The notes under the pieces are model-generated. The model saw only the letters and a list, made by a program, of their open reading frames with translations, searched no databases and had not been told where the DNA came from. A DNA stretch of 60,053 nt, counting the filler, from Candidatus Babelota bacterium (GTDB taxonomy: Bacteria; JAGOBX01): the NCBI GenBank assembly GCA_017999075.1. It is 7 parts of 7 records of this genome, joined end to end, with 100 filler letters (N's around TTAATTAATTAA, not from the genome) between each part and the next. Parts side by side here need not be neighbours in the genome. Positions count along the whole stretch, not along the records: positions 1 to 8,606 come from JAGOBX010000131.1; 6 more parts are not named here. One strand, 5' to 3'. How positions within the stretch are numbered: position 1 is the first letter of the stretch; each line of letters begins with the position of its first letter. A program made the position numbers and the translations under genes. Shown here piece after piece: positions 1 through 26,053 of the stretch.

Positions 1-91
1 ATATAAAATTATTTGTAATATTATGAATTCAAAATTTTTAAAATTTTGGTTAATAAAAAGTGCAAGAAATGGTTAAGAATAAATAAAATCC

Positions 92-182
92 GTCGTCTAT
101 CTTATGACTGCCGTTCGCGCTGCGCGCGACCTACGGACAGTCGCCTGCGGCGACCGTCGGCAGTCATTATCCGATATATGAC
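92..182 (+). repeat. attC-like cassette recombination site 1 (non-canonical, TATC/GATA core)
   Basis: GTCGTCTATC-TT-ATGACTGCCG(104-113)...CGGCAGTCAT(158-167)-TATCC-GATATATGAC; GC-rich palindrome in AT-rich intergenic DNA. Confidence 0.85.
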
Positions 183-211
183 AGTGTTTTAAGAAAAAAT
201 GCAATAAACTG

Positions 212-240
212 TTGACATAACAACAATATCGTTGTATAGT
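212..240 (+). promoter_or_regulatory. sigma70 promoter with palindromic operator for the TA cassette
   Basis: TTGACA(212-217)-N17-TATAGT(235-240); ACAAC-N6-GTTGT inverted repeat at 220-235; ATG at 248 suggests a leaderless transcript. Confidence 0.7.
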
Positions 241-247
241 GCTGGTT

Positions 248-622
248 ATGGATGAAAAGGAATTTTCGGTATGCTTTTATTCAAAAGCAAACAACCAAAC
301 ACCAGTTGAAATATTTTTAGATTCGTTGAATACTAAAGAACAACAAAAAATAGTTGCTCATATTAAATTATTAGAAAAATACGGAAACAAGTTAGAAAGA
401 CCATATAGTGCATATTTACGTGATAAAATTTATGAACTTCGGATAAAGGTTTCACGAAATCAATATAGAATTTTTTATTTTTTCTATTTAGATAAGAAAA
501 TAATTTTAACAAATGCAATGATAAAAAAGACAGATGAAATTCCAATACAAGAAATCGAAAAAGCGGTATCTTATATGAATGATTTTATTACTCGATATAA
601 ACGAGGTGATATTAAATTATGA
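248..622 (+). CDS. RelE/HigB-family (Gp49-like) toxin
   Basis: PVEIFLDSL, LERPYSAYLRDKIYELR and YRIFYFF motifs; overlaps the downstream HTH gene. Confidence 0.85.
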   Translation: MDEKEFSVCFYSKANNQTPVEIFLDSLNTKEQQKIVAHIKLLEKYGNKLERPYSAYLRDKIYELRIKVSRNQYRIFYFFYLDKKIILTNAMIKKTDEIPIQEIEKAVSYMNDFITRYKRGDIKL

Positions 623-906
623 AAACATTAAAACAGTATATCACTGAAAAAGAAAAAAAAAGCCCAGGTTATAAAAAAGAAATAGAACGTGAATTTATAA
701 AAGCAGAGATATTTTATTTATTGCGCAAAACACGAGAAAAACATCAAATATCGCAAATAGAATTAGCACAGAAATGTCGTTTATCTCAGCAAGCTATTTC
801 GAAAATTGAAAATGCTAAAGATGATCATATTTCTCTGCACACATTAAATAAATATGTTAGTGCGTTGGGATATAGATTAAATTTTGCATTAGAACCTGCG
901 TTATGA
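619..906 (+). CDS. XRE-family HTH antitoxin (HigA-like)
   Basis: ISQIELAQKCRLSQQAISKIEN HTH; ATGA overlap with the toxin. Confidence 0.85.
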   Translation: MKTLKQYITEKEKKSPGYKKEIEREFIKAEIFYLLRKTREKHQISQIELAQKCRLSQQAISKIENAKDDHISLHTLNKYVSALGYRLNFALEPAL

Positions 907-913
907 AAACACC

Positions 914-1007
914 GTCATATATCTCGGAGTCTGCGCTCGCCGCTGCGCGGCGGCCTTGCGGTCAGACTGCTGCGCAGTCCGACGCAGACTCCTGTCCGAT
1001 AACCGAT
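914..1007 (+). repeat. attC-like site 2
   Basis: GTCATATATC-TC-GGAGTCTGCG-c-TCG...CGA-CGCAGACTCC-TGTCC-GATAACCGAT. Confidence 0.85.
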
Positions 1008-1028
1008 ATTTTTATTAAAGGGAAAAAT

Positions 1029-1775
1029 ATGGTGCAAATTATTTATTTTTTTATTACATTATTTCTAATATTTAGTAATTCATCTAATGCTTCAATATTA
1101 GGAATGGAGTATAAGGAAATAATATTTAATCAAAACGATACAACTATTGACGCAATATGGGCAGATAATTTAAAAATTACTCAAAGTGGACTTGAAAGTC
1201 CAAAATTAGAATCATTAATGAGTATTGAGACATGGATTAAAATTAATAAAATGTCCGCAGGTTATGCTTGGCGCCCACCTGAAAATTCTAATATTAGACT
1301 ATTTATTGATGGCATAGGTTCAGAGACATTTCCATTACAAGTTTATGTAAGATTTGGCTGTGATGGTAAACACTGGTCAACATGGTATAAAATGAATATA
1401 GATTTTAACTATAAATTTTTTAGGAAAAAAGCCAAGTGGATTTTTTCCTATGAACTTAGAATTCCCAAAGATAAACAAGAAAATGAATATTCAAAATTAT
1501 TTAGTGAATGGGGACAAACAGATGTAGCCTGGTCATCTGATGAAAATGCTTTTTGTGAATATTTGATAAATAAAAAGCCAGATTTTTTTAGAGACAATTT
1601 TCCATTTATCGGGTATTTACAGTTTCTTTTTGAAAGTTCTTCTTTAAAAGAAAAAATAATAATAAAATCTATAAGTATTGAATCGGCTTACGGGGTTGGC
1701 GGTATGCATTCAAAACCTAAAGAAGGATATATACCTGATTATAATAGCAAATGGCACTTAAATATTGGCAAATAA
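1029..1775 (+). CDS. hypothetical secreted protein (cassette ORF)
   Basis: ATG at 1029 after AAGGGA, followed by a signal-peptide-like MVQIIYFFITLFLIFSNSSNA; the ORF-track extension to 903 merely reads through site 2. Confidence 0.75.
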   Translation: MVQIIYFFITLFLIFSNSSNASILGMEYKEIIFNQNDTTIDAIWADNLKITQSGLESPKLESLMSIETWIKINKMSAGYAWRPPENSNIRLFIDGIGSETFPLQVYVRFGCDGKHWSTWYKMNIDFNYKFFRKKAKWIFSYELRIPKDKQENEYSKLFSEWGQTDVAWSSDENAFCEYLINKKPDFFRDNFPFIGYLQFLFESSSLKEKIIIKSISIESAYGVGGMHSKPKEGYIPDYNSKWHLNIGK

Positions 1776-1779
1776 AAAC

Positions 1780-1876
1780 ATCGGTTATCTTAGACCTGCC
1801 GTTCGCGCCGCAAGCGTCGCGACCCTACGGGACACCGCGCAAGCGCGGCGTCGGCAGGTCTTATCCGATAACTGCC
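1780..1876 (+). repeat. attC-like site 3
   Basis: ATCGGTTATC-TT-AGACCTGCCG...CGGCAGGTCT-TATCC-GATAACTGCC. Confidence 0.85.
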
Positions 1877-1896
1877 ATTTTTAAAAAGAGAAAAAT

Positions 1897-2781
1897 ATGA
1901 TTATAGATTCACACACTCATTTATTTGATGTATTCACAGGACATAAAATTAAAAAAGGAATAGTTAATTATCCTTTAGGCATAACAATGCTGTTAGAATG
2001 GTTGGGATATAAAAAAGGAAATAATAATAAAACTCCGAATAAAATCATTCGATATTTAGCATTATATGATAATTTAAAACGTTCCCAATGCGGAACAATA
2101 GAAAATTTAGTTTTTTATATGTCTGAAAATAAAATTCAAAAATCATTAGTTTGGGCGATTGAACCATTTGTGAAAACAAAAGGACTAATTGAAATATATA
2201 AAGATAATAATAATTTATTGCCAATAGCCTCAATTAACTTATTTAATAATCCTGATATTGATATTGTTAATGAATTTAAAAAAAATATTTCGGATAAAGT
2301 ATTTGGATTAAAGATACATCCAATAATTCAAAATATTCATCCGGCATCCGAAATATTTTTAAATGTTTTAGAAGAATATGCAATTTATAAAAAACCTGTT
2401 TTTTTACACACCGGGTCAAGCTCGGTTGTATTTAGAGAATATAATAATTATGAATATGGTTCAATATATAATTTTGAAAAAGCGGTTAAAACATTTCCGA
2501 ATATTCAATTTATATTTGGACATATGGGTAATAATACGCCTTTGGAGGCAATTGATTTAGCAAAAAAATATTCTAATATAATTCTCGAAACAAGTTATCA
2601 AAACAATAAAATAATCAAAATTGCTATAGATAATATAGGTATTGAACGAATAATATTTGGCTCTGATTTTCCGTATTCAAGACAATATTATGCTTTGAAA
2701 GAAATTTTTAAATTAAAAATTTCTTACGATAATTTAGAAAAAATATTATTTAAAAATATAAAAAGAATTATTAACATTTAA
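1897..2781 (+). CDS. amidohydrolase family (Amidohydro_2) metal-dependent hydrolase
   Basis: IIDSHTH, GLKIHP, FLHTG, FGHMG and IIFGSDFPY motifs. Confidence 0.85.
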   Translation: MIIDSHTHLFDVFTGHKIKKGIVNYPLGITMLLEWLGYKKGNNNKTPNKIIRYLALYDNLKRSQCGTIENLVFYMSENKIQKSLVWAIEPFVKTKGLIEIYKDNNNLLPIASINLFNNPDIDIVNEFKKNISDKVFGLKIHPIIQNIHPASEIFLNVLEEYAIYKKPVFLHTGSSSVVFREYNNYEYGSIYNFEKAVKTFPNIQFIFGHMGNNTPLEAIDLAKKYSNIILETSYQNNKIIKIAIDNIGIERIIFGSDFPYSRQYYALKEIFKLKISYDNLEKILFKNIKRIINI

Positions 2782-2782
2782 A

Positions 2783-3664
2783 ATGAAAAAAATTGTAATA
2801 TTGACATTTGAAAGTTTGGGTTCTGGATATTTAATTTATCATATTATGAATAGTAAATATCAGAAATATATTGATCAAATAATTATTAGTAAAAAATCAA
2901 AGCCGTTAAATTATGTATTTGCATATTTACAAAAATTTCATTTTAAAATTTTCATTTTAAAAATATTCGAATTTTTTTCTTTTAAAATTTTCAATTTATT
3001 GTATTTAGTTACAAAAAAAAAAATAGGAATTCCAAGTATAAAACAAATGTGTAAAGAAAATAATATTTTTTTTTGTTATGAAAATAATATTAATTCTAAG
3101 TTTAATATAAATATATTTCAGACAAAAAAAGAAACAGTTTATTTGTCTATTTATTTTGATCAAATTATTAAGAAGGAATTATTGCAAAGTATGGGCGGAA
3201 ATTGTTATAATATACACCCCGCATTGTTGCCTAATTATGGAGGACCAATTCCGACTTTTTGGATGTTATTTAATAAAGAAAGTGAATGTGGAATTACATT
3301 ACATAAAATTGATACGAATATTGATGAAGGGATAATTTATTATCAACAGAAATTTAAAATAACTCCAAATGATAGTGTTCAATCTCTTTATTTAAAATCT
3401 ACATGTAAAGCAACGAATATTTTGTATAAATTTTTAGACGATATACTTTCATCACAAAATGAAATTAAATCAATTGAAAACGAATATAAGAAATCATATT
3501 ATACATTCCCATTGAAAGATATGAATATAAATCATATTAAATTATTATCATGGAAATATTTTTTTTCATGGGTAAAGAATTTTAAAAACGGCAGTTATCT
3601 TGACCTTTTACCTCGCACCGCAAGCGGTGCGGCGGCTTTGCCGTCATCGCTTCGCGACGAGTAA
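2783..3664 (+). CDS. formyltransferase family protein (Fmt/ArnA-N-like)
   Basis: NIHPALLPNYGGPIP, GITLHKID and IDEGII motifs; the C-terminus runs into site 4. Confidence 0.85.
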   Translation: MKKIVILTFESLGSGYLIYHIMNSKYQKYIDQIIISKKSKPLNYVFAYLQKFHFKIFILKIFEFFSFKIFNLLYLVTKKKIGIPSIKQMCKENNIFFCYENNINSKFNINIFQTKKETVYLSIYFDQIIKKELLQSMGGNCYNIHPALLPNYGGPIPTFWMLFNKESECGITLHKIDTNIDEGIIYYQQKFKITPNDSVQSLYLKSTCKATNILYKFLDDILSSQNEIKSIENEYKKSYYTFPLKDMNINHIKLLSWKYFFSWVKNFKNGSYLDLLPRTASGAAALPSSLRDE

Positions 3665-3693
3665 AAGGTCTATCCGATAGACGCAATGCAATC
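3590..3693 (+). repeat. attC-like site 4
   Basis: GGCAGTTATC-TT-GACCTTTTAC-c-TCG...CGA-GTAAAAGGTC-TATCC-GATAGACGCAATGCAATC. Confidence 0.85.
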
Positions 3694-3779
3694 TCAACGA
3701 AAGCGGCTACGATTTTCTTTAAAACTCGCAACTAAAACTATTGACAAATAAAGCACTTACAATATTTTTTGAAAAATCC

Positions 3780-3808
3780 CTAAAGTTTTTTTGAGATTCA
3801 GACGATAT
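3780..3808 (+). promoter_or_regulatory. sigma28/SigD (FliA) promoter
   Basis: CTAAAGTTT...GACGATAT (TAAA-N16-GACGATAT) upstream of a flagellin gene. Confidence 0.65.
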
Positions 3809-3903
3809 ATAAGACAGTTTGTGAAATTTATATTGAGGTGATTATAGAAATAATCATTTAATTAAAATCTAATTCGACTTAAAAATGTCGATACATAATT
3901 AAA

Positions 3904-4085
3904 CCTTGAGTTGAAAACTGGCACTTTTCTAAAGTCCAAGGTAAAACACACGCTTCCGAATTTAAGTTCGGGGCGTAAGCTTTTACGCTTTGGACTTCGG
4001 TATGCCAGTACCTCAACTCAGGGCGTTGAGTTTACGCCCTTTGCACTTTCAGAAAACAACTCAAAAAAAATAGCGTAAATTCAAC
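3904..4085 (+). other. structured 5' leader (long hairpin 3904-4023 plus hairpin 4025-4085)
   Basis: nested complementary segments CCTTGAGTTGA/TCAACTCAGGG, ACTGGCA/TGCCAGT, AAGTCCAA/TTGGACTT, GTAAAA/TTTTAC and GTTGAGTTTACGC/GCGTAAATTCAAC. Confidence 0.55.
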
Positions 4086-4096
4086 ATTTAAAATAA

Positions 4097-4108
4097 CTCA
4101 AGGATGAG
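4097..4108 (+). promoter_or_regulatory. CsrA-type binding hairpin overlapping the RBS
   Basis: CTCA-AGGA-TGAG places GGA in a hairpin loop next to the GAGGTG Shine-Dalgarno of the flagellin. Confidence 0.6.
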
Positions 4109-4119
4109 GTGATTTTTAA

Positions 4120-5763
4120 ATGGATTTGATGAGCGCTATAACTAATTCACTCGCAAACGGCGCATACAGAATGATGAACTTGCAACGAGACCAAATGTTG
4201 CAACATCAGAACAAAATATCTTCAGGAAAACGGATAAATTCAGCATCCGATGATGCTGCCGGACTTGCAATATCTAAAAAATTTGAAACACAAACAAGAG
4301 GGCTTCAACAAGCTAACAGAAATGTTCAAGACGGAATTTCTATGTTGCAAACATTAGAAGGCGGTCTTGGTGGAATACACGATATATTACAACGAATGAG
4401 AAGTCTTGCAGTTCAATCAGCAAATGATACATTAACAAATGAAGACAGAAACTTAATTCAATTAGAAATAAACGAATTGATTAAAGAAATCGACAGAAAA
4501 CAAACAAGTTGTGAATTTAATACAATCAAGTTATTAAAAGGAGTTTTCAATAATCCTAAATTAGGCGAATGGAATCAAATAACACAATTGAATGGTTCTT
4601 CTATAGCAGGTTTTGATGTTAGCACTGACGGAAAACTAATTACTTTTTCTTCAAATAAGGATGACGGAATAACAAGCAAATTATATGTAATGAATTCTGA
4701 CGGAAGTAATATTAAAAAATTAACCGATTTTCCGTCATATATGTCAAAATTTACTCCAGATAATGAAAACATAACATTTACAGGTATTCCACCAGGCGAA
4801 ACTCTTCGTGAAGCTATGATGATTAGTGTTGACGGAAATAATTTAACAAACCTTTCAAATACTCCGCTTTCGGCAGAATCTTATTCTCAAGTATCTCCTG
4901 ACGGAAATACTGTTATTTGGTCTCAAAGCGGAAATTTAATTAAATCTGATTTTCCTGACTTAAACCCATCTGCAACAGGTAATGTAATTGGCAATTGGTT
5001 TAATTATTTTCCGTCAGGTGATAAAATAATCTATCATCGCAACGTCGTCACAAGTTGGGAAATATTTATTGCTGATTTAGAAGGAAATGTTTTACAACAA
5101 GTTACTAATAATTCCCTTTCTGATTTAGTCTACGGAAATGGAATTTCACCAGATGAAAGTAAAATTGTTTTTTCAAGGCATTCGTCTAATAGTTCTACCG
5201 ATGATACAGGCGAATTATATATGATGAATATTGACGGCAGTGAGTTAACTCGATTAACAGATAATAATTCATTTGAAGGATTGAGTCAATTATCCGAAGA
5301 CGGAAAAAAACTTTACTTTGTTTCGAATAAAACAGGTGCTCAAGAAATTTATACTGCCGAAATGGAATATGACGGTTTATTCTTACATGCTGGCGCAAAT
5401 ATGAATCAAACTATTGAATTAAAACTTGACAATATGAGTTCATACGCACTAGGAATTCGTGGATTATCCGTTGAAACTCAAACTCAATCAGAAGCAGCAT
5501 TAGGACTAATGGATAATGCTATAAATAAAGTTTCCGCATATAGAGCAAAAATTGGAGCTCTTCAAAATCGCCTTGAACATACTTTTAATTATAACGGAGC
5601 AGCCGAAGAAAATCAGACATCTGCCAAATCACGAATCGAAGATGCAGACATTGCTCGTGAAATGATTGAATACACAAAACGAGATATGCTCGATAAAATT
5701 TCAATGTCAATGCTTTCACAAGCAAACTTAAAGCAAAAAAATATTTTAAATTTATTTCAGTAG
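4120..5763 (+). CDS. fliC: flagellin with TolB-like (PD40) beta-propeller in the variable region
   Basis: Flagellin_N (SSGKRINSASDDAAGLAI, LQRMRSLAVQSANDT) and Flagellin_C (RAKIGALQNRLEH, SRIEDADIAREM); the centre has repeated SPDG/STDGK...I.FSS...LY.MN.DGS blades. Confidence 0.9.
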   Translation: MDLMSAITNSLANGAYRMMNLQRDQMLQHQNKISSGKRINSASDDAAGLAISKKFETQTRGLQQANRNVQDGISMLQTLEGGLGGIHDILQRMRSLAVQSANDTLTNEDRNLIQLEINELIKEIDRKQTSCEFNTIKLLKGVFNNPKLGEWNQITQLNGSSIAGFDVSTDGKLITFSSNKDDGITSKLYVMNSDGSNIKKLTDFPSYMSKFTPDNENITFTGIPPGETLREAMMISVDGNNLTNLSNTPLSAESYSQVSPDGNTVIWSQSGNLIKSDFPDLNPSATGNVIGNWFNYFPSGDKIIYHRNVVTSWEIFIADLEGNVLQQVTNNSLSDLVYGNGISPDESKIVFSRHSSNSSTDDTGELYMMNIDGSELTRLTDNNSFEGLSQLSEDGKKLYFVSNKTGAQEIYTAEMEYDGLFLHAGANMNQTIELKLDNMSSYALGIRGLSVETQTQSEAALGLMDNAINKVSAYRAKIGALQNRLEHTFNYNGAAEENQTSAKSRIEDADIAREMIEYTKRDMLDKISMSMLSQANLKQKNILNLFQ

Positions 5764-5775
5764 GAGAATTTTTAA

Positions 5776-6348
5776 ATGGGTGATTATAATCAGTGGTATA
5801 ATTTCACATATGAAGGAATATTTTCTTTAGCGTCATGGGATAATTTCAATGAAGATATTGAAAAAAAAATTATATGTCTTTTTTCATGGATGCCCTGTGC
5901 TATAATGAATATTACTCATTCAGGAAAAGGAAAAAATCGAATCACAAAAGCTCAAGTATATAACATTGAAAATTGTAAAGAAAAAATTTTATCTGTCAAA
6001 TCAATCGCTGAATCATTTAAAAATATAAAATTGGTAGATATCGACATTAAAAATAAAAAAATAAAACAAAATATTCTTGATTTAAGTAAACCACTTGTCG
6101 AAATATTTGGAACAGTAGGAGCAAGTAAATTTTTACATTTTAGTTTTCCATTTTTTTTTATTATGTGGGATCGAAAAATAAGAAATCATTATAAATTAAA
6201 AGACAATGAAATAGGTTATTATAATTATTTATTGAATGCAAAAGAAGCATTAAATAATTCCGATATTTTAAATATAGCAAAAAATAAATTTCCTAATAAC
6301 ATTCTGCGTGGTTTAGATATATACAGAATGGAAACTATTCGAGATTAA
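5776..6348 (+). CDS. hypothetical protein
   Basis: 190-aa ORF with AGGAG RBS directly after the flagellin; GASKFLHFSFP..FIMWD motif. Confidence 0.7.
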   Translation: MGDYNQWYNFTYEGIFSLASWDNFNEDIEKKIICLFSWMPCAIMNITHSGKGKNRITKAQVYNIENCKEKILSVKSIAESFKNIKLVDIDIKNKKIKQNILDLSKPLVEIFGTVGASKFLHFSFPFFFIMWDRKIRNHYKLKDNEIGYYNYLLNAKEALNNSDILNIAKNKFPNNILRGLDIYRMETIRD

Positions 6349-6376
6349 AATTATTTTATCCACATATAATAATGCC

Positions 6377-6489
6377 GATTGCACTGCGTCTATCATAGTC
6401 CTATACCTCGTGCTTCGCACGGCTGCTGCGCAGTCATTTTGCCTTCGGCAAAACGAGTATAGGACATTACCGTTATCCGCAAAAAGCGC
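6377..6489 (+). repeat. attC-like site 5 (right core GTTA)
   Basis: GATTGCACTGCGTCTATC-AT-AGTCCTATAC-c-TCG...CGA-GTATAGGACA-TTACC-GTTATCCGC. Confidence 0.85.
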
Positions 6490-6570
6490 AGAGAGAAAAT
6501 TCATTTGCTTAATTATTTATTTTGATATATTATGTAATCATTTATAAAATGAAATGTGGAGAACTAACTA

Positions 6571-7734
6571 ATGTTTAAAGAAATTCTATTAACTTATGAT
6601 AGTAATTTAACAAAAAATGAAATAATGTCAATAAATATTTTCAATAATTCATTTGATGAAAGTGATATTAAATTGGAATATAATTGTAATAAAATTATTG
6701 TTTTGTTACGTGAAGTTGACTTGGATAATTTGAAACGTGTATCTCAAGGTTTATTAAAATGTTCAGAAAAACCAATTTTTTCGGATATTATTACTCGTAT
6801 TGAAGCTATTAAAAGTTATGGCATCAATGGGAAAAAAAGAAATTATATTGATTACAATAAAGAACGGAAAGTAAAAAATCGAACAGAAAAAGAAGAAAAG
6901 CGAGGACAATATTATTATACAAAAGGTAATGATTTTTCAAAAATAAATAATGACTTACCTAATGAATTTATTGATAAAATTATATCAGAAGATAGCGAAA
7001 TTTTTTTGAAAAAATTGCCAGATAATTCTATTGATTTGGTTTTTACTTCTCCGCCGTATAATTTTGGATTGGAATATGAAAAAAATGCGGATGATCATTA
7101 TTGGGATGATTATTTTAATAAATTATATAAAGTTTTTGAACAGTGTATTAGAGTATTAAAATATGGCGGCAGAATTATTGTAAATATTCAACCTCTTTTT
7201 TCAGATTATATTCCGAGTCATCACATAATAAGTAATTATTTCATCCAAAAAAAATTGATTTGGAAAGGAGAAATTTTATGGGAAAAAAATAATTATAATT
7301 GTAAATATACAGCTTGGGGAAGTTGGAAAAGTCCAAGTAATCCATATTTAAAATATACATGGGAATTTCTTGAAATATTCTCAAAAGGGAGTTTAAAAAA
7401 AGAGGGAAAATCTGGAAATATAGACATTATTGCAGATGAATTTAAACAATGGGTTGTTGCTAAATGGTCTATAGCTCCTGAAAGAGATATGAAAAAATTC
7501 AACCACCCTGCTATGTTCCCAGAAAAATTAGTTGAAAGAGTTATTAAACTTTTTAGTTATAAAAATGATGTTATTCTTGACCCTTTTAATGGAGTAGGAA
7601 CAACAACATTAGTTGCTAAAAAAAATGAGAGAAAATTTATTGGTATTGATATTTCTAACGAGTATTGTTCTACCGCGTTAAAAAGATTAGAAAATTTAAA
7701 AATAGAACAGGGGTTGTTTGCAAATGAATTATGA
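6571..7734 (+). CDS. site-specific DNA methyltransferase (N4/N6, beta class)
   Basis: FTSPPYN motif IV precedes HPAMFPEKL and ILDPFNGVGTT (motif I). Confidence 0.9.
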   Translation: MFKEILLTYDSNLTKNEIMSINIFNNSFDESDIKLEYNCNKIIVLLREVDLDNLKRVSQGLLKCSEKPIFSDIITRIEAIKSYGINGKKRNYIDYNKERKVKNRTEKEEKRGQYYYTKGNDFSKINNDLPNEFIDKIISEDSEIFLKKLPDNSIDLVFTSPPYNFGLEYEKNADDHYWDDYFNKLYKVFEQCIRVLKYGGRIIVNIQPLFSDYIPSHHIISNYFIQKKLIWKGEILWEKNNYNCKYTAWGSWKSPSNPYLKYTWEFLEIFSKGSLKKEGKSGNIDIIADEFKQWVVAKWSIAPERDMKKFNHPAMFPEKLVERVIKLFSYKNDVILDPFNGVGTTTLVAKKNERKFIGIDISNEYCSTALKRLENLKIEQGLFANEL

Positions 7735-8428
7735 AAAAATAAATGAATTAGTTAAAACTTATGAATCTGTTGTAAAAGTTGTCGATAAAAAAGCATCCGA
7801 AGAAGAACATCGAGCTTATGGTGGCGTTGTTCGAAGTGTCAAAGGTTGGTTGCAAGAACATTTAACAGAAGAAATAATAAAAATTGCTTGGGAAAATGTA
7901 GGTGGAAATAATTCAAGAATTGAAATTAATTCTCAAAAACAAATGATACCAATTAAAAAAGATTATATCATCAAAATTCAAGATGAAGAAATTAAAAATT
8001 TTATATTAGAAAATATTACAGATTATTTTTATGGATTGAGTGTGGATAAACAAATTTTTATTGATAATAATTTTGTTATTGGAATAGAATGTAAAGCATA
8101 TACGGAAAATGCGATGATAAAAAGAATCCTTGTTGATTTCAGTTTATTGAAAACAATTTTTCCGCAATTACAGTGTTATCTATTTCAGTTAGAAAGTCAA
8201 CTCGGTGGAGATTATTCAGAATTAAAGAAAATTACTTTTGGCAGCACGTCGACACATACTTTGATGTCATATTTTCCAGATGTTAGTTTAAATATTTTTA
8301 CTTTTTTGAAAGGTGAAAGAAAGGTTGATAAACCAATTCATAAATATGAACATTTCAAACCTATCGAAAAAGATAAATTAATAGAAGCAGTTGAATTAAT
8401 ATCAGAAGATATAAAAAGATTTTTATAA
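7724..8428 (+). CDS. putative type II restriction endonuclease
   Basis: overlaps the MTase; VDKQIF...GIECKAY resembles a PD-(D/E)xK motif. Confidence 0.7.
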   Translation: MNYEKINELVKTYESVVKVVDKKASEEEHRAYGGVVRSVKGWLQEHLTEEIIKIAWENVGGNNSRIEINSQKQMIPIKKDYIIKIQDEEIKNFILENITDYFYGLSVDKQIFIDNNFVIGIECKAYTENAMIKRILVDFSLLKTIFPQLQCYLFQLESQLGGDYSELKKITFGSTSTHTLMSYFPDVSLNIFTFLKGERKVDKPIHKYEHFKPIEKDKLIEAVELISEDIKRFL

Positions 8429-8433
8429 ACAGA

Positions 8434-8537
8434 GCGCTTTCAGCGGATAACTTGTGCTTTTACCTCACGCCTTCGGCGTGGCCGCTTCGCGGTCAGCGCT
8501 TCGCGCCGAGTAAAAGCACGGTTCGATAAATGCCATC
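8434..8537 (+). repeat. attC-like site 6 (left core TAAC)
   Basis: GCGCTTTCAGCGGATAAC-TT-GTGCTTTTAC-c...CGA-GTAAAAGCAC-GGTTC-GATAAATGCC. Confidence 0.85.
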
Positions 8538-8559
8538 TTTTTTAAAAACGAGGTGTATT

Positions 8560-8607
8560 ATGTTAACAGAAAAACAGATTGAAGATGTATTTGAACAATA
8601 TTATGAN
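8560..8607 (+). CDS. start of next cassette ORF (partial, MLTEKQIEDVFEQYY...)
   Basis: GAGGTG RBS then ATG after site 6; cut by the contig end. Confidence 0.55.
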
Positions 8608-8706
8608 NNNNNNNNNNNNNNNNNNNNNNNNNNNNNNNNNNNNNNNNNNNTTAATTAATTAANNNNNNNNNNNNNNNNNNNNNNNNNNNNNNNNNNNNNN
8701 NNNNNN

Positions 8707-9863: not shown

Positions 9864-10688
9864 CTATAATTCTTCTATTGTTTGTTTCAAACTTTCAAAC
9901 AGACTTTCACATTTAATTTTTAATGTAGAATCGAAATTTCCTTTATCTGTTTCCAGAATACAACTTATATCATCCATATTCTGTGAACCGACTACTTTCA
10001 ATTTTTCAAGAGAAGTAACTTCACCAGCAACTACATTTTTCATATTTTTAATTTTTTCAACATTCGACTGGCTGACTTTTATAACTAATTCTTTAGCATC
10101 GCCTATTTCAGATAATAAATCTGTCAAATTTTTTATTAAAATATCTTCCTTATAAACTTCAATTTCTTTTGAAATAATATGATTAACAAAAGTCTTAACT
10201 ATTTCAAAAATTTCATCTTTCAAATTAAGAATTTTTTCTTTTTTTTCTTTAGTAATTGTATCTATTATTGAATTCAAAAGCAATAATTTATCTTTAGTTT
10301 CATTTTTGAATTCAGTTATTGCTTGTTTATATCCTTCATCATAGCCACGTTGAAATCCGGTTTGTTTCTGGATTTCAATTTGCTGTTTAGAGGATTCTAT
10401 AATCTCAATTTTCTGTTGTTCCCCTTCTTTAAGCAAATTAATTTTTTTTTGTTCGATTTCAATAAGAGCCTGTTGCTCCAATTTAACAAGCTCTTTCTTC
10501 TTCTCTTCTATAAGTTCATTTATTTCTGAAAGTTTTTGTTCGGCAAGCTTTGTTTCATCAACTTTAAGTTTATCGTCTTCAGATTCTTTTATAAAAATAT
10601 TTTCTCCGTCAAAATTTGTGCCTATAATAAAATTGCGCGGGTTTACAGTTATATTAAGTGATTTATAAATCCCTGTGTCCTGAGTCAT
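9864..10688 (-). CDS. fliH: flagellar assembly protein FliH
   Basis: GFQRGYDEGYKQA GxxxG repeats; lies between fliG and fliI. Confidence 0.8.
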   Translation of the reverse strand: MTQDTGIYKSLNITVNPRNFIIGTNFDGENIFIKESEDDKLKVDETKLAEQKLSEINELIEEKKKELVKLEQQALIEIEQKKINLLKEGEQQKIEIIESSKQQIEIQKQTGFQRGYDEGYKQAITEFKNETKDKLLLLNSIIDTITKEKKEKILNLKDEIFEIVKTFVNHIISKEIEVYKEDILIKNLTDLLSEIGDAKELVIKVSQSNVEKIKNMKNVVAGEVTSLEKLKVVGSQNMDDISCILETDKGNFDSTLKIKCESLFESLKQTIEEL

Positions 10689-11707
10689 TATACTACTAAT
10701 TCTTCTTCACCTCCGCGTGCGATTATAATGTCTCCGGATTCTTCAAGACGTCTTATAACATTAACTATACGCTGTTGAGCTTCTTCAACATCGCGCATAC
10801 GCACAGGTCCCATAAATTCCATATCTTCTTCAAGCATTGCAGACGCGCGTTTTGACATATTGCCGAATATTTTCTGTTTAACAGTCTCGTCAACAGCTTT
10901 CAAAGCAACTGCAAGTTCTTTTGTATCAACTTCACGCAAAACCTGCTGAATTGACCTGTCATCAAGTAAAACAATATCTTCAAATACAAACATAAGTTTC
11001 TTTATTTCTTCAGCGAGTTCAGGTTCTTCTTCCTCAAGATTTTCAAGTATGCTCTTTTCAGTACCGCGGTCCACTTTATTCAATATATCAACTATAGCCT
11101 GCACTCCACCTGCAATCGTATATTCTTCGCTGACAAGAGATGATAATTTCTTTTCAAGAACCCTTTCAACCTGCCTTAATATTTCCGGAGAAGTTCTGTC
11201 CATTGTTGCAATTCTTTTAGCAACGTCAGCCTGTATCTCTACATTCAGCTGAGGAAGTATCGCTGCCGCAGTATCAGGATCAAGATAAGATAAAATCAAG
11301 GAAATAGTCTGAGGATGTTCACCTTGTATAAAATTCAAAACATGTGAAGGATCAGCTTTTCTTACAAAATCAAATGGTTTTACCTGGATACTCTGAGTCA
11401 ACCTGTTTATTATATCCATAGAACGCTGTGTTCCCAAAGCTTTCTCTAAAACCTGACGGGCATAATCAAGCCCGCCTTGAGTTATAAAATCATTAGCCAT
11501 CAGCATTTCATGAAATTCCTGAACAACTGAATCCTTGTCAGACGGCTCAACCTTTTCAAGTTTTGCTATCTCCAAAGTCAATTCTTCAATTTCTTTATCC
11601 GTTAAATGTTTGAATATATTTGACGATATGTCAGCGCCAAGCGTTACTAAAAAAATCGCTGCTTTTTGTTTTCCCGTCAACTTATCACCTTGCTGGTTTG
11701 ACGCCAT
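10688..11707 (-). CDS. fliG: flagellar motor switch protein FliG
   Basis: LTGKQKAAIFL, GGLDYA, EHPQTI, MFVFEDI and GPVRMRDVEEAQ. Confidence 0.97.
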   Translation of the reverse strand: MASNQQGDKLTGKQKAAIFLVTLGADISSNIFKHLTDKEIEELTLEIAKLEKVEPSDKDSVVQEFHEMLMANDFITQGGLDYARQVLEKALGTQRSMDIINRLTQSIQVKPFDFVRKADPSHVLNFIQGEHPQTISLILSYLDPDTAAAILPQLNVEIQADVAKRIATMDRTSPEILRQVERVLEKKLSSLVSEEYTIAGGVQAIVDILNKVDRGTEKSILENLEEEEPELAEEIKKLMFVFEDIVLLDDRSIQQVLREVDTKELAVALKAVDETVKQKIFGNMSKRASAMLEEDMEFMGPVRMRDVEEAQQRIVNVIRRLEESGDIIIARGGEEELVV

Positions 11708-11738
11708 TTAACCGCCTCCTGTTATTTAACTACTAATT

Positions 11739-13364
11739 TTATCTGTTTTCAAACAACCAAGTACGCAATAGCGCAGCCACCATTTCAGGTTTCTTCTGAG
11801 CCATATCCTGCGCATGTTTCAATAATTCAAGTTTTTCGCGTTCTTCAGGAGTTAATTCCGAATCCGCTATCAGCCTTGAACCAAGCGCCTGATCCTGTGT
11901 GGCAAGTTCGCGTTTACGCAACAATTCTTCTTTACGAAGCTTCCATCTTTTATGCATTTCAAACAGAAATATGAAAATTATTACAAGACAAACTATACTT
12001 AACACTGTAATTTTAAACATTCTTTCTTTTTGAAGTTTTGATTTTATAAGTTTATCTTCATACTCAAATTCCGCTGTACGGTCGAATTGCAATTCTACTA
12101 CTTTAACACTGTCGTTTCGGTCAGGATTATATCCTATTGCGCTTTTAACCCCTTCTTCAAGACTTTTTAATAATTCAGGAGTCAAGTGTTTATAAGTTCT
12201 TTTTATCTTCTCAGTCGGTTTAGATGGTTCAGTATATTCCCATATCCCGTCAACCATCAAAGATGCCGAAACTCTTTTAATTGTCGGATTTCTTACTATT
12301 GATTTTTCAAGTTTATTAGGTTCATAATTTATACGATTTTCTTTCTTTTCATATTTTATCGGTCCATTTTCAGCGCTTTTATATACAGGTATATTATCTG
12401 TTACTCCAGGTTTTCCGCCTTCTTTAAAGCCTATCCCTTCAAATTTTTCGTCAAGAGTTTCTTCGCTGCGTTTAATAGGATCAAATCCGGGATTTGAAAA
12501 TTCCGTTGACTTAGCCTCTTCCTTATCAAAATTATATTCAATAGTAACTTCAGCTGTAATTCTTCTGTGACTTAATATTTTCCCAAGTGCATTTATTATT
12601 TTGTTTTTTAATTTTTTCTCTTCACGTTCTTTTATTTTATTCTGCATATCAACTTTGGTTTCACTTTCTATCTCTTTATCTTCAATTTCATCGTTTAAAC
12701 TCTCGCCTGTAGCAGAATCAACAAGCATTATATTTTCAGATTTACAATTTGGTATATAATAAGATGCAAGGTTTATAATCCCTTTAATCTGTTTTTTTTC
12801 AAGTTTTTCATAAGGTTTAAGTTCTATTGTTATTGATGCTTTAGAAGATTCTTCCATAGAAGAAAACAGCGGTCTGTCCGGCAAAGATATCGCAACAACT
12901 GCAGATTTTATCGGACCTAAACCCTGAATCATACGGGTTAAAGCTCCTTCAGTCGCGATTTTAAAATGAATTTTCTTTTCGTATTCAGTAAGTCCGCGCG
13001 GCAAATCTTTAAATATTTCAAATCCTGTTATATTACTTTTAGGAAGTTTGTTCTCTGATCCTAATTTTAATAAAATATCATTTTTCCTTTCAGAAGAAAC
13101 ATATAAATATCCAAGATTAGCGTCATATTTATAATTTTCACGCCAATCATCAAGAGATTTTTTTACTTGACCCGCGTCTTCTATTGATAACTTATGGTCA
13201 AATAACGGCGTAAGCTTCTCACCTGATGTTATAATTGCAGTTATTATAATTGCAGTTAATGCAAGGGCAACAATTGAAATAATTGTAATTTTCTGTTTCT
13301 TAGACAAATTATTCCAAACATTTAGCCCCTGTTCTTTAAATTTATTAAAAAAATCTTTCATCAA
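11739..13364 (-). CDS. fliF: flagellar M-ring protein FliF
   Basis: two TM segments, GFEIF, ATEGALTRMI, KASITIEL and AIGYNPDRNDSV; upstream of fliG. Confidence 0.92.
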   Translation of the reverse strand: MMKDFFNKFKEQGLNVWNNLSKKQKITIISIVALALTAIIITAIITSGEKLTPLFDHKLSIEDAGQVKKSLDDWRENYKYDANLGYLYVSSERKNDILLKLGSENKLPKSNITGFEIFKDLPRGLTEYEKKIHFKIATEGALTRMIQGLGPIKSAVVAISLPDRPLFSSMEESSKASITIELKPYEKLEKKQIKGIINLASYYIPNCKSENIMLVDSATGESLNDEIEDKEIESETKVDMQNKIKEREEKKLKNKIINALGKILSHRRITAEVTIEYNFDKEEAKSTEFSNPGFDPIKRSEETLDEKFEGIGFKEGGKPGVTDNIPVYKSAENGPIKYEKKENRINYEPNKLEKSIVRNPTIKRVSASLMVDGIWEYTEPSKPTEKIKRTYKHLTPELLKSLEEGVKSAIGYNPDRNDSVKVVELQFDRTAEFEYEDKLIKSKLQKERMFKITVLSIVCLVIIFIFLFEMHKRWKLRKEELLRKRELATQDQALGSRLIADSELTPEEREKLELLKHAQDMAQKKPEMVAALLRTWLFENR

Positions 13365-17284: not shown

Positions 17285-17383
17285 NNNNNNNNNNNNNNNN
17301 NNNNNNNNNNNNNNNNNNNNNNNNNNNNTTAATTAATTAANNNNNNNNNNNNNNNNNNNNNNNNNNNNNNNNNNNNNNNNNNN

Positions 17384-17542
17384 NGCTATAAGTAATACGT
17401 CAGGAGGTATAGGAAAAAAAGAAGATTCCGCAAAAGACATTAAAATCAAAACCAAATTTCCATATTGAGTGTTGGCCCAGTGTAATGTCCAATTATAAAT
17501 ATATTTTACAGGTTTATTTATAAAATTCATAATTTTTTTCAT
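17384..17542 (-). CDS. YqaA/DedA family membrane protein (partial)
   Basis: SFAESSFFPIPPDVLLI motif. Confidence 0.8.
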
Positions 17543-19508: not shown

Positions 19509-20903
19509 TTATAATTTAGGTTTATAATATTTTTTTAGAATACTATCAGGAATTCTTTCAAAAAGTGAAACTGGAAGTTTAGAAAATAATTCCCAAACAA
19601 TATTCAACGATTCTTCTATTGTTCTGTTTTCAGAATAAGACTGGTTAATGAACACTTGTTCAAAACTGCGTGAAAAATCAAGAATAATTTTATCAGTTTC
19701 ATTCAAACTTTCTTCACCTATTACAGCTACAAGCGACGCAATTTCCTGAGACTGAGAATACAAAGCATTTAATTGACTTGCAACTTTATCATGATCATCT
19801 CTGGTTTTCCCTTCACCTATTCCGTCTTTCATCAGGCGGGAAAGAGAAGATAAAATATTTACAGGCGGATAAATATTTTTTTTAAAAAGAGATTTACTTA
19901 ATACTATCTGCCCTTCAGTAATGTATCCAGTCATATCAGGTATAGGATGAGTAATATCATCATTCGGCATAGTAAGAATCGGAATTTGCGTTATTGAACC
20001 TGATTTGCCATGAAGCCTTCCTGCGCGTTCGTAAATCGTAGACAAATCGCTGTACAAATATCCCGGAAATCCTTTGCGCGACGGAACTTCGCCTCTGCTT
20101 GATGAAAGTTCACGGAGAGCTTCACAATAATTAGTCATATCAGTCAAAATTACTAAAACATGATAATCTTCTTCAAAAGCTAAAAATTCAGCTGTAGTCA
20201 AAGCTGACCTGGGTATCATAATCCTTTCAATTATAGGATCATTGGCAAGATTAAGAAACATAACTACTTTATTAAAAGCGCCGCTTTCTTCAAAACTATT
20301 CCTGAAATAATATGCCGTATCATTTTTAATTCCCATTGCCCCGAAAACTACTGCAAATTTATCATTTGCCTTATCAGTAATATTAGCTTGCCGCGCAATC
20401 TGAGCTGCAAGCATATTATGCGGTAATCCTTCAGTTGAAAAAATCGGAAGTTTCTGGCCTCTTATAAGAGTTGCTAAAATATCAATTGCTGAAACCCCTG
20501 TTTGTATGCAGTCTTTAGGATAACTTCTGGATACAGGATTTATAGGTTCGCCATTAACATTTTTTTTTACGGACGACAATATTTCAGGACCATCATCAAG
20601 CGGTTTACCTAGAGCATTAAACGTCCGGCCAAGCATTTCAGCTGAAACCGGAAGCTCAAATGGCTTACCGAAGAATTTTATTTTGGTCTCCGCAAGATTT
20701 AAATCTTTAGTGCCTTCAAAAACCTGAACAACCGCAAAACTATCAGTTACTTCTATAACTTTCCCAGTCCGGCGAGAATCATCGTGTAATTGAATTTGAA
20801 CTAATTCATCATATCCTACTCCGCTTATATTTTCAATAACAATAAGGTTTCCCGAAGATTTTGTAATTCCTTTATATTCTTTCAATAACATATTTTTCAC
20901 CAT
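19509..20903 (-). CDS. atpB: V-type ATP synthase subunit B
   Basis: [21 protein letters not shown] and [12 protein letters not shown]. Confidence 0.95.
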
Positions 20904-22663
20904 TTCATATTAGAAATTTCATCATCAAATTTTTTCCAAACTTCATCAATCAAATAAAGTTCATTATTCTTGACTGTACTTTTAAGTTTGAACAAAACAT
21001 CATTTATTTTTAATTTTTTCAATAAATCAAACGAAACGCCTTTTATATTTAATTCTTTTAAGACATCATAATAATGATGATATAATTTCAACATTTTATA
21101 TTGTTTTTCCATAGAACAATAAGTGTCAACTTCATCATAAGCCCCCTGCTGAAGAAAACCAGTTTTTATCAAACGCGCAAAAAAAATAATTAATTTCTGA
21201 TTGTCTGCAAGCACATCATCTCCAACAAGTTTTACAATTTGAGACAATTCATTTTCAATTTGCATTATTTCCATTGTTTTATTAACTATCTGCATCCAAT
21301 CAGGCGAAACGTTTTTTTCCCAGTATTCACTCATTTCATTATAATATTCCGAATAGCTCTCCAGCCAGTTAATAGCAGGGTAATGCCTGGCATTTGCCAG
21401 ATTGCGATCAAGCCCCCAGAAACATCTGATAAAACGTTTTGTATTCTGAGTTACAGGTTCGCTGAAATCACCGCCAGGAGGTGAAACTGCGCCTATAACA
21501 CTTATAGAACCATTTGTTTTATTAAAATTCTGAACATATCCTGCCCGTTCATAAAATTCTGCAACTCTGCTTCCAAGATACGCAGGATATCCTTCTTCGG
21601 CTGGTATTTCTTCAAGTCTTCCGGAAATTTCACGCAAAGCTTCCGCCCATCTCGAAGTAGAATCAGCCATAATTGCAACATTATATCCCATATCTCTGAA
21701 ATATTCGCCAAGTGTTATTCCTGTATATATGCTGGCTTCACGCGCGGCAACAGGCATATTTGAGGTGTTTGCTATAAGTATTGTTCTTTCCATAAGAAGT
21801 TGACCTGAACGCGGATCAATTATTTTAGGAAAATCTTCAAGCACTTCAGTCATTTCATTTCCTCTTTCTCCACAGCCAACATAAACAATAAGATCAGCAG
21901 CGCTCCATTTTGCAAGTTGATGCTGAGTCATTGTTTTACCTGTCCCGAATCCGCCTGGTATAGCAGCAGTGCCTCCTTTGGCTAACGGAAAAAACGTATC
22001 TATAACACGCTGGCCAGTAATTAAAGGTTCTGCAGGAAGCAACCTTTGTTGAACCGGCCTTGAAATGCGAATAGGCCAATTCTGAAACATTTTAATTTCC
22101 TTTATGCCATTCGAAGTTTTAACTCGAAAAATAACAGTCTCTATATTGTAAACCCCATTAGGAATGTTTTCTATAATCTCGCCACTTATACCTATCGGTA
22201 CAAGAATTTTATGAACAATCATAGATGTTTCCTGTATTTCTGCAACAATATCCCCTGATTTAACAATATCTCCTTTGATTTTAAGAATTCTTACCTCCCA
22301 TTTTTTTTTACGGTCCAAAGTAGTAGACGAAACTCCTCTTGTAAGAAATTGTCCGGAAATCTGTTCAAGTTTTTTTAAAGGTCGTAAAATTCCATCATAC
22401 ATATTTCCAACAAGCCCCGGGCCTAATTCAGCATAAAGCGGAAAATTAGTGCGGTAATAAGGTTCTCCTGGTTTCAATCCGCAAGTATCTTCATAAACCT
22501 GAATGGTAGCAATATTATTATTCAATTCAATAACTTCTCCTGTAAGTTTAAGATTACCTGCTTGAATCAATTCAAACATTTTTACGTTTACCGCATTATC
22601 CAGTTTAACAACAGGTCCGTTTACATATATAATTTTTCCATTAGGCGTCTGCATAACAATCAC
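20897..22663 (-). CDS. atpA: V-type ATP synthase subunit A
   Basis: [18 protein letters not shown] and [14 protein letters not shown]. Confidence 0.95.
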
Positions 22664-22669
22664 TTCCAG

Positions 22670-23305
22670 TTATTCATATAATTCTTTCAATATAATAAAT
22701 TTCAATTCTGTTTTTGAGGAATTCAGTCTTTCTTCAACTGTATTAGACAAAAAATAATTTTTATTCTCAGGTTTAACCATAACTCCTGCATTAGTCGTAA
22801 TATAATCATAAGATTTAATCAAATTCACTATTTTGTTATGTTCGGTAAAAAAATAATTATTAATCTTTTCCAAAAATTCAGGGGTTAAAATACATTCATC
22901 CCTTTTATCAAATATCAATATTATATCCGGTTCATCAATTTCCATTACCGCTTCAATGATCATAGCTCTTAAAATTGCAGGATATTTTTTGTTTTCTCTA
23001 ATGGTTTTCAAATCCGCATTAACCTCTTCAAAAAGATTTTCCACAAGTTCCGAAATTTTTTTCATTTTATTTTTTTTTTGTTCAAGAGTCGCCTGAAGAA
23101 TGTTTCTATTCCCCGAATTTTCAGAGTCTTTTTTAATTTGATTAAGTTTTTTCGATATATTATCTTCTATCTTTTCAATTTCTTTTTTTTCATAATCTGC
23201 CGCCCAATCCAAAGCAGATTTTATAATTTCATCACGTTTGGCTTCTGCTTCTTTCATAATATTTTTACTAATATTATTTATTTTATCATTAAATGAAACA
23301 GCCAT
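22670..23305 (-). CDS. atpE: V-type ATP synthase subunit E
   Basis: N-terminal coiled coil, C-terminal AGVMV..SNTVEERL; operon position. Confidence 0.8.
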   Translation of the reverse strand: MAVSFNDKINNISKNIMKEAEAKRDEIIKSALDWAADYEKKEIEKIEDNISKKLNQIKKDSENSGNRNILQATLEQKKNKMKKISELVENLFEEVNADLKTIRENKKYPAILRAMIIEAVMEIDEPDIILIFDKRDECILTPEFLEKINNYFFTEHNKIVNLIKSYDYITTNAGVMVKPENKNYFLSNTVEERLNSSKTELKFIILKELYE

Positions 23306-23310
23306 AATTA

Positions 23311-23622
23311 CTACACCTTCATTCCTGTAGATTGAAAAATATAATCAATAATATAATTTTCATTAAACTTGCTATTGTTTTTTTCAGGAATAACATGCAC
23401 TAATGGAAGCGCTCCTGATTTCGAATGTGTTTCAATTTTATTCCTGATAATATCAGCTATATCTGCAGAAACTATAATTAAACATAAATCAGGCGTATCC
23501 AATAGTTTTTGAAATAATAAATCAAGTGAATTTTCAGTCATAGTGTCAGGACAAACTGATTTAATTCCTGCAAAACCAAGTATATCTCCGCACTCCTGGC
23601 TTACAAACCCTATTATCTTCAT
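23311..23622 (-). CDS. atpF: V-type ATP synthase subunit F
   Basis: 103 aa with GFAGI and PLVHVIP; operon position. Confidence 0.8.
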   Translation of the reverse strand: MKIIGFVSQECGDILGFAGIKSVCPDTMTENSLDLLFQKLLDTPDLCLIIVSADIADIIRNKIETHSKSGALPLVHVIPEKNNSKFNENYIIDYIFQSTGMKV

Positions 23623-24110: not shown

Positions 24111-24169
24111 AACAACCTCCTAAAAATTATATTTAATTATTGCATAGTTTTATATTATATACTATATGC

Positions 24170-25954: not shown

Positions 25955-26053
25955 NNNNNNNNNNNNNNNNNNNNNNNNNNNNNNNNNNNNNNNNNNNNTT
26001 AATTAATTAANNNNNNNNNNNNNNNNNNNNNNNNNNNNNNNNNNNNNNNNNNN

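Follow-up and report, generated by a model that had tools for sequence, protein, structure and literature searches.

A propeller flagellin as probable cargo of a cassette in an integron-like array of a Candidatus Babelota bacterium

The DNA analysed here, a window of 60,053 bases from the genome of a Candidatus Babelota bacterium (GenBank assembly GCA_017999075.1), encodes a flagellin of 547 amino acids (aa), P0001, whose polymerisation helices flank a centre that models as a β-propeller, and the gene lies between two attC-like sites. It is probably an accessory propeller flagellin, and its gene would be the principal cargo of a 2.8-kb cassette, complete in itself, that belongs to an integron-like array. 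Good support for the cassette comes from the covariation of the sites, from a complementarity rule at the cassette boundaries and from the turnover of cargo. New is the combination of a late-flagellar-type promoter, a leader RNA, a flagellin as cargo, an attC-type array and an Xer-like neighbour; the fusion of a propeller to a flagellin has already been predicted in print.

The window is not one genomic stretch, it joins seven contigs in order of length, C272 to C278 (8.3–8.6 kb each), of one metagenome-assembled genome (MAG). The linkers, N runs around TTAATTAATTAA, are at 8607–8706, 17285–17384, 25955–26054, 34572–34671, 43141–43240 and 51619–51718, and neighbourhood across them is artificial because the contigs were concatenated. 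The flagellin contig is C272, window 1–8606. The host MAG (G000) has 594 contigs and 3.83 Mb, is 87.35% complete with 2.58% contamination, and has a GC content of 30.2%. The genomes used for comparison were one of the same genus (G001, 97% complete), one of the same family (G002) and one of the same class (G003); the host lineage is deep and sparsely sampled, since the set holds one genome each at genus, family and class rank, and ribosomal protein L2 has only relatives from MAGs above 70% identity.

The flagellin and its propeller centre

The gene and the parts of its product are as follows.

4120–5763 (+): flagellin paralog, 547 aa, ATG start, seen as an open reading frame (ORF) and by Pfam, AlphaFold2 (AF2) and Foldseek
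~4102–4111 (+): Shine-Dalgarno sequence AAGGATGAGG, 5' of the flagellin ORF
aa 1–142: D0/D1 N-terminal helices
~aa 143–435: PD40 propeller
aa 454–547: D1/D0 C-terminal helix

The ORF has exactly the coordinates given by an earlier reading of the DNA (the sequence-only reading), which also took the product for a flagellin with intact N- and C-terminal domains on either side of PD40/TolB-like repeats. Pfam and the AF2 model agree with this architecture, and the PD40 region covers about 290 aa. Flagellin_N (PF00669) matches aa 8–142 (E 1e-36, 126.5 bits against a cut-off of 26.6), and Flagellin_C (PF00700) matches aa 462–546 (E 2e-19, 70.2 bits against a cut-off of 23). In the AF2 model, made from a 35-row alignment and with a mean pLDDT of 80.6, an all-beta centre stands between flagellin helices at aa 3–34, 42–100, 107–130 and 454–546. 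Solved flagellar filaments rank first among the Foldseek matches of the full-length model (9au6_A, E 2.2e-16), followed by TolB and S9-peptidase propellers. The NCBIfam flagellin models reach at most 219.7 bits, under their own cut-offs, because of the central insert; the FlgL model TIGR02550 gives 116.4 bits (cut-off 127.2). Judged by these profiles, the protein is a flagellin, and neither FlgL nor TolB. Export by the flagellar type III apparatus and polymerisation into the filament would be expected of it.

In the centre, PD40 (PF07676) matches aa 376–411 (E 3.8e-8, 33.5 bits against a cut-off of 20.9), and the propeller families DUF5050 and DPPIV_N are also matched in Pfam. Six SPDG-type motifs, at aa 168, 212, 259, 297, 343 and 392, indicate six blades. 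A model of the domain by itself has a pTM of 0.76, with its last 47 residues disordered. All the top matches listed for it are β-propellers, as expected from the TolB-like propeller that had been proposed from the sequence, and the S9 peptidase 6igq_D is found at E 5e-12; against TolB 7mx5_A the TMq is 0.57, with an rmsd of 3.9 over 247 columns. The modelled centre is a six-bladed propeller of the TolB or S9-peptidase type, and no recognisable catalytic motif was seen in the propeller.

A six-bladed PD40 propeller is also what TolB of the Tol-Pal system has, and the TolB structures 7mx5, 4r40, 4pwz and 1c5k are matched by Foldseek at 15–19% sequence identity. The TolB model TIGR02800 gives 71.9 bits against a cut-off of 343.15, with profile positions 200–310 as the best stretch and the propeller part as the only one matched, and the N-terminal domain of TolB is absent from the cassette flagellin.

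Searched alone against 1.84 billion representatives, the central 319 aa gave 48,445 matches at E≤1e-3, of which 217 reach E≤1e-30, and the best matches are large multi-propeller PD40 proteins with 30–47% identity. In 61 genomes searched with the central domain no ortholog was found; the next best match after the domain itself (E 1e-20, 34% identity) is in an unrelated genome. The search of genome contigs with P0001, from which the window's own genome was possibly left out, gave three loci, all distant PD40 proteins (25–39% identity) and none of them a flagellin relative. The alignment pattern of P0001 and its 716-aa metagenomic relative P0002 matched 592 stretches of metagenome contigs, of which 0 code for a relative.

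Enzymatic flagellins of the flagellinolysin type carry a HEXXH metallopeptidase as outer domain. The cassette flagellin is like them in having a foreign domain in place of D2/D3, and a HEMIH unit is found on C334 of the host genome; the propeller differs in being a predicted scaffold or binding fold, not a peptidase. Among the 682 structural clusters of outer domains in AlphaFold predictions, the HEXXH metallopeptidases are cluster #15 and flagellins with WD40-repeat outer domains are cluster #55 (Fields et al., Nat Commun 2024, PMC11532411). For cluster #55 cellular non-flagellin homologs are noted, suggesting co-option (PMC11532411). The D0/D1 core and the β-propeller outer domain are common to that cluster and the cassette protein, whose repeats are of the PD40 type. 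In its passages on cluster #55 that paper makes no claim about genomic context, and the flagellin described here adds a cassette, its own σ28-type promoter and a leader RNA.

Sites, cassette boundaries and cargo

The contig has six attC-like sites, of which the fourth and fifth bracket the gene, as the sequence-only reading had it.

91–186, 913–1011, 1779–1880, 3589–3689, 6384–6485 and 8441–8538: the six attC-like sites of C272 (covariance model)
3589–3689 (+): attC-like site of the upstream cassette, site 4 (covariance model R1, 101.1 bits)
3677–6472 (+): flagellin cassette, 2,796 bp (boundary rule)
6384–6485 (+): the cassette's own attC-like site, site 5 (R1, 79.3 bits)

Five palindromes of C272 are GC-rich; their outer boxes are conserved, the inner stem covaries and the middle is variable, and the covariance model was built from these. 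It has 17 matches in the host genome (E≤1; six of them on C272, with 913–1011 as the additional one), 18 in G001, 6 in G002 and 0 in G003 (E≤0.01). When 45 sites from G000, G001 and G002 were aligned, 94.9% of the cells were paired as compared to 65.0% in shuffles, none of which (0 of 500) reached this value, and with sliding partners the paired cells dropped to 31–44%. All ten inner (L) stem pairs show compensatory changes over these 45 sites. The sites are imperfect palindromes with R and L boxes, in which structure is conserved over sequence, as is the case for attC. The consensus of the canonical attC right-box core is GTTRRRY. Here the core reads GTTA or GATA and not strictly GTT; the flagellin cassette starts after the G of GATAGAC and ends at the G of GTTATCC.

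To define the cassettes, the 11 nucleotides (nt) from the right-box G of one site were compared with the reverse complement of the left outer box of the next site (the boundary rule). The two agree at 9–10 positions in each of the 22 adjacent site pairs scored in three genomes, one gapped pair being left unscored. As controls, 2 of 36 pairings within a site and 5.2% of 1,563 ordered pairs reached at least 9 of 11. The rule implies that the cassettes are discrete, circularisable units. They look like those of an integron: a unit begins right behind the crossover G, and once it is circularised its first bases pair with the outer box of the site at its end. By this rule crossover falls after G3676 in site 3589–3689 and after G6472 in site 6384–6485. 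Read from G3676, the 11 nt GATAGACGCA agree at 10 positions with the left outer box of site 6384–6485 in reverse complement, which sets the cassette at 3677–6472; the corresponding 11 nt at G6472 agree at 9 positions with the left box of site 8441–8538, again in reverse complement. The covariance model found no internal site between 3689 and 6384. A long hairpin at 3907–4040 was considered as site 4 and rejected; it has no match to the site model, the boundary rule joins 3589–3689 to 6384–6485, and the hairpin is a separate conserved RNA.

All genes of the C272 array are on the + strand and co-oriented, and at least three of the five complete cassettes hold two annotated genes; another holds a single unknown gene. 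The annotated cargo besides the flagellin cassette is:

239–906 (+): Gp49 (HigB-like) and helix-turn-helix (HTH) pair, a two-gene cassette
1897–3664 (+): Amidohydro_2 gene and formyltransferase (ArnA / sugar-formyltransferase-like) gene, the upstream cassette
6571–8428 (+): N6/N4 DNA methylase gene and a 236-aa unknown gene, a two-gene cassette

The amidohydrolase and formyltransferase could form a glycan-modifying pair, and to connect them with modification of the flagellin is speculation. When the DNA of C272 was compared with G001, G002 and G003, the sites, the flagellin D1 segment and the leader RNA were all that they had in common, and no cargo of C272 was shared with any of the three.

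Sedentary chromosomal integrons, such as the Vibrio superintegron, and attC clusters without an integrase are known from other bacteria. The array resembles them in its co-oriented cassettes, in its homogeneous imperfect palindromes conserved in structure, and in having the first G of the inner-right box as its crossover point. Also alike are cargo of toxin-antitoxin and restriction-modification type and promoters inside some of the cassettes. It differs in the right box, which is G(A/T)TA here as compared to a strict GTT, in the frequent two-gene cassettes, and in the recombinase beside the entry site, which lacks the IntI insertion and is co-oriented with the cassettes. In the literature searched, no description of a flagellin as cassette cargo was found.

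Eight public sequencing runs contain part of the sequence, none of them recorded as RNA, and the Logan contigs of four of these (X1–X4, from one study) were compared with 1–8606. In X1, which is possibly the source sample, a 2,264-bp contig spans 3647–5910 and another spans 6293–7159 across site 6384–6485, both with 0 differences. Pieces with 0 differences are also present in the other three runs, and the four are labelled 2019–2021. The Logan contigs break at the attC-like sites. One low-support joint, from 4042 to 4513 (side 24, one contig), and three chimeric Logan matches that run from attC to attC are most readily put down to further copies of the repeat sequences.

As a separate observation, a lone attC-like site (48.5 bits) is located on C277 at 45566–45663 (−), beside an unknown ORF of 357 aa at 45649–46722 and about 1.2 kb from a gene of the S-adenosylmethionine (S-AdoMet) lyase family at 43784–44362.

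Promoter, leader RNA, other flagellins and recombinase

Inside the cassette the flagellin gene is preceded by two elements and followed by a second gene. Further copies of the leader RNA are given with them.

3781–3808 (+): putative σ28 (FliA)-type promoter, TAAAGTTTTTTT-N-GACGATAT, a motif also upstream of two core flagellin genes
3907–4020 (+): structured, multi-stem leader RNA, followed by a terminator-like hairpin at 4021–4039 and a T-run (fold, conservation)
5776–6348 (+): second gene, 190 aa, a DUF6308 look-alike that begins 13 nt past the flagellin stop codon
G000:C341:997–1140, G000:C438:1–47, G001:C53:18901–19044 and G001:C184:6142–6285: other copies of the leader RNA

The core flagellin genes on C352 and C342 of the host have TAAAGTTTTTT...CCGATA(A/T) with equal spacing, 254–398 nt 5' of their start codons, and looser GCCGATAT-type elements lie upstream of three other flagellin genes. 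The gene fliA is present in the host genome (236.2 bits, cut-off 189.6). The match to the core flagellin promoters, together with the presence of fliA, suggests that the cassette carries a promoter of the host's late-flagellar type, which may be active.

The leader RNA has a DNA-fold z-score of −6.6 against shuffles, and it is known in four full copies and one cut copy, all within the genus; its model matched in G000 and G001 only, two of the 41 genomes searched. Compensatory changes are seen in 14 of 49 predicted pairs, a count that comes from only four sequences. It belongs to no Rfam family at E≤1, and over 1–8606 the sole Rfam match at this threshold is a chance small nucleolar RNA (snoRNA) inside the flagellin ORF. 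All five copies have a co-oriented ORF within 35–140 nt downstream, the ORFs being of unrelated families, and the other copies carry σ70-like promoters. We read this RNA as a cis-acting leader or attenuator, a new candidate of its kind, with a free-standing small RNA as the alternative.

The 190-aa product of the second gene has no Pfam or NCBIfam match. In the ESM Atlas it has a feature score of 0.97 and a structure TM of 0.77 to clusters that partly carry PF19827 (DUF6308). The GC content of this gene is 23.9%, that of the flagellin gene 33.3% and that of the contig 28.9%.

The host genome has 12 Flagellin_N matches on 9 contigs. The set comprises four or five short core flagellins (272–292 aa), FlgL, two genes cut by contig ends, and two larger ORFs.

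G000:C248:209–4840: giant flagellin, 1,543 aa; Pfam matches Flagellin_N and Flagellin_C at the two ends and nothing in between
G000:C334:1431–4934: two complete flagellin units in one frame, 1,167 aa; HEMIH (HEXXH-type) lies in the middle of the first unit, PD40 repeats in the second

The ORF on C334 is either a true tandem fusion or the result of a lost stop codon or an assembly error. In the N domain, the cassette flagellin and the core flagellins have 58–65% identity; with the propeller unit of C334, compared over the full length, the identity is 32%. A propeller flagellin of the type of the second C334 unit is also found on G001:C130; it is 37% identical to P0001, has two unrelated genes as neighbours, and there is no attC match on the contig. 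A fixed chromosomal flagellin in relatives is what the sequence-only reading had named as speaking against it, and half of this was found: the genes of G001:C130 and G000:C334 lie outside cassettes, but they are of a different subfamily (32–37% identity). The contigs that bear a flagellin also have an attC match in 1 of 9 cases in G000, 0 of 14 in G001 and 0 of 8 in G002. The idea that other flagellin paralogs are flanked by the same sites did not hold in these three genomes, where the attC search at contig level gave none.

Among the best 120 of 4,385 database matches, PD40 is found, beside P0001, only in P0002 and P0005. P0002 (716 aa) comes from a 2.3-kb metagenomic contig (2,280 bp), and its first 30 residues are identical to those of P0001. 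The identity is 79% over N-terminal residues 1–139 and 62% over the C-terminal 125 aa, and 27% in the centre, which is longer and different. Conserved ends with a variable centre, as these two sequences have, are a pattern typical of flagellin alleles.

Two recombinase loci are of importance for the array.

G000:C9:1970–3187: Xer-like tyrosine recombinase, 405 aa, intact; the contig ends 267 nt later (3188–3454)
G002:C50:1527–2742: ortholog of the C9 gene (42–59% identity), split into two ORFs and co-oriented with the cassettes

No recombinase in G000, G001 or G002 reaches the IntI cut-off (TIGR02249, cut-off 265), and the best pieces in G000 score 96.9 and 86.9 bits. The C9 recombinase has an N-terminal extension of about 110 aa, and the IntI profile is matched only at positions 3–179 and 229–314. 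In the comparison with VchIntIA (2a3v), residues 5–183 and 239–319 are aligned, and there are 14 aa where IntI has 55; the best matches of this type of recombinase in the Protein Data Bank are XerC-like 4a8e and XerA 5hxy. The C9 protein was considered as an IntI and rejected, being under the family cut-off and without the IntI-specific insertion.

On G002:C50 the recombinase ends 228 nt before GATAACTGCC (2970–2979), whose reverse complement occurs at 4289, inside the left box of the first attC. There are two matches as compared to 0.02 expected, and the entry-site match means that the boundary rule holds at an entry site too. The 3' region of the C9 gene has a block conserved with G002 and a possible junction, AAG|TTATCAG. 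On this sequence evidence the platform of the array appears to work like an integron, yet its recombinase falls outside IntI.

Fragments matching the IntI profile and containing in-frame stops were also seen in the host genome, at C189:1055–1453 and C124:2049–2132. They lie 0.2–0.7 kb from attC-like matches (C189:1645–1713 and C124:2801–2898), and may be decayed recombinases at other array heads.

On the other contigs of the window, fliH, fliG and fliF are found at 9864–13364, on the contig next after C272. Their presence means that the organism is flagellated, and it is uninformative on linkage to the flagellin cassette since the contig is a separate one. The sequence-only reading had pointed to fliF/G/H/I in the window, and three of these genes are there, but the argument from linkage fails. 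Contig C274 has an operon of a V/A-type ATPase (A, B, E and I subunits) at 19509–25942, and at 47162–51194 a sigma factor of the extracytoplasmic function (ECF) type with a long fused C-terminal part (445 aa) is followed by a TPR-CHAT protein of 900 aa.

Alternative readings and significance

If the gene is the cargo of a working cassette, a tyrosine recombinase would excise and insert the cassettes, cutting at G|WTA, and the candidate would be the Xer-like enzyme of the G002 array, which has its intact ortholog on G000:C9. The flagellin gene would be transcribed with the late flagellar regulon, with the leader RNA as a gate. The protein would then be exported by the flagellar export apparatus and co-polymerise with the core flagellins of 272–292 aa, and the propeller domains would stud the filament as binding modules for a ligand. 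In Salmonella, Hin inverts the fljBA promoter, switching between two resident flagellin genes. The two systems are alike in that site-specific recombination alters which flagellin the cell makes. In Salmonella it is the promoter that is flipped, and here a cell would acquire or lose the entire gene, promoter included, as a cassette.

Several observations weigh against this favoured reading. No excision product, empty site or second copy of the cassette was seen in the Logan contigs of X1–X4, which cannot show rare forms. The sequence-only reading called the cassette mobile, and this stands as far as the unit is discrete by the boundary rule (22 of 22) and its cargo is not shared with G001, but neither an excision nor a circular joint was found in these contigs. 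Carriage of a flagellin by a cassette would be a single case in G000, G001 and G002, where only one flagellin-bearing contig has an attC match. IntI is above its cut-off in none of these three genomes. A recombinase beside an entry site and followed by an array was seen in one instance, on G002:C50, and this copy is split by a stop or frame change. In G001, which is 97% complete, there is no close ortholog of the C9 gene (best match 36% identity), and in the host no join was seen between C9, with the recombinase, and C272, with the array. The MAG is fragmented into 594 contigs and 87% complete. As for the gene itself, the terminator-like hairpin between the promoter and the flagellin gene could silence it, the protein begins with MDLMSAIT... 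where the other paralogs usually have M-x-I-N, and in the full-length model the AF2 confidence is below 50 at residues 269–310, which is about one blade.

Some of these points would also fit a sedentary relic, an attC-like cluster without a working recombinase, where the flagellin is now fixed and possibly silent, and a past capture is recorded. We consider this rather unlikely. It would explain that no IntI is above the cut-off in the three genomes of the family, that the recombinase beside the G002 array is split, that IntI-like fragments with stops occur near attC matches on C189 and C124, and that there is a terminator-like hairpin in the leader; the cassette sequence, with 0 differences in the pieces listed from four runs of one study labelled 2019–2021, also agrees with it. 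An intact 405-aa ortholog of the array-linked recombinase is present on G000:C9, however, with a conserved downstream block. The ends of the cassettes are near-perfect (9–10 of 11 in 22 of 22 pairs), and decay would erode them. Furthermore, the cargo of the arrays is wholly different between the two species of the genus, and the ORF, the promoter and the ribosome-binding site of the flagellin are intact.

It is also conceivable that the protein is not a filament subunit, the termini being an export or anchoring module by which the propeller is secreted, or placed at a junction or cap-proximal position, via the flagellar export apparatus. The atypical 30 N-terminal residues and the FlgL score close to its cut-off point in this direction, and at least four short core flagellins are already encoded by the host. 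Against it stand the full-length D0/D1 helices, which are modelled at high confidence and have filament structures as their best matches, and the flagellin models, which outscore that of FlgL. Outer domains of this size or larger are documented or predicted in true flagellins, as far as the predictions in PMC11532411 go, and the termini of P0002 are conserved as compared to the divergent centre, the classic pattern of flagellin alleles. A role outside the filament is for these reasons improbable.

That C272 is foreign or chimeric, so that the flagellin gene and the sites would belong to another host or would not be neighbours at all, is very improbable. A MAG of 594 contigs with 2.58% contamination is open to such errors, and repeated attC sites break assemblies, as the Logan contigs do there. 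The site family is nevertheless found in independently assembled genomes of the same genus and the same family (18 and 6 matches), and further copies of promoter motif and leader RNA are found elsewhere among the host contigs and in G001. The X1 contigs cover 3647–5910 and 6293–7159 without differences, although X1 is possibly the source sample, and the GC content of the contig, 28.9%, compares with 30.2% for the genome.

The favoured reading, a propeller flagellin carried as cassette cargo, may be taken one step further. A non-canonical integron-like system, with an Xer-like recombinase that has no IntI-specific insertion and would cut at G|WTA, might circulate flagellin modules, each consisting of a swappable outer domain, a σ28 promoter and a leader RNA, and P0001 and P0002 would then be two alleles. 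This is possible, though on the whole doubtful. If it is true, capturing one cassette would be enough to bring a new surface domain under the flagellar regulon, and the filament would be re-tooled for binding, for evasion of phages or predators, or for another role. Adhesion, antigenic variation and phage-receptor switching, the roles suggested by the sequence-only reading, may be among these.

The outer domains of flagellins are a large and mostly unexplored store of surface functions, and how they are acquired is poorly understood. If the array is active, flagella would be diversified by cassette exchange instead of by homologous recombination within fliC. The range of cassette cargo would be extended to a structural subunit of an organelle, and an attC-type array beside a non-canonical recombinase in a deep lineage bears on the evolution of integron-like recombination.

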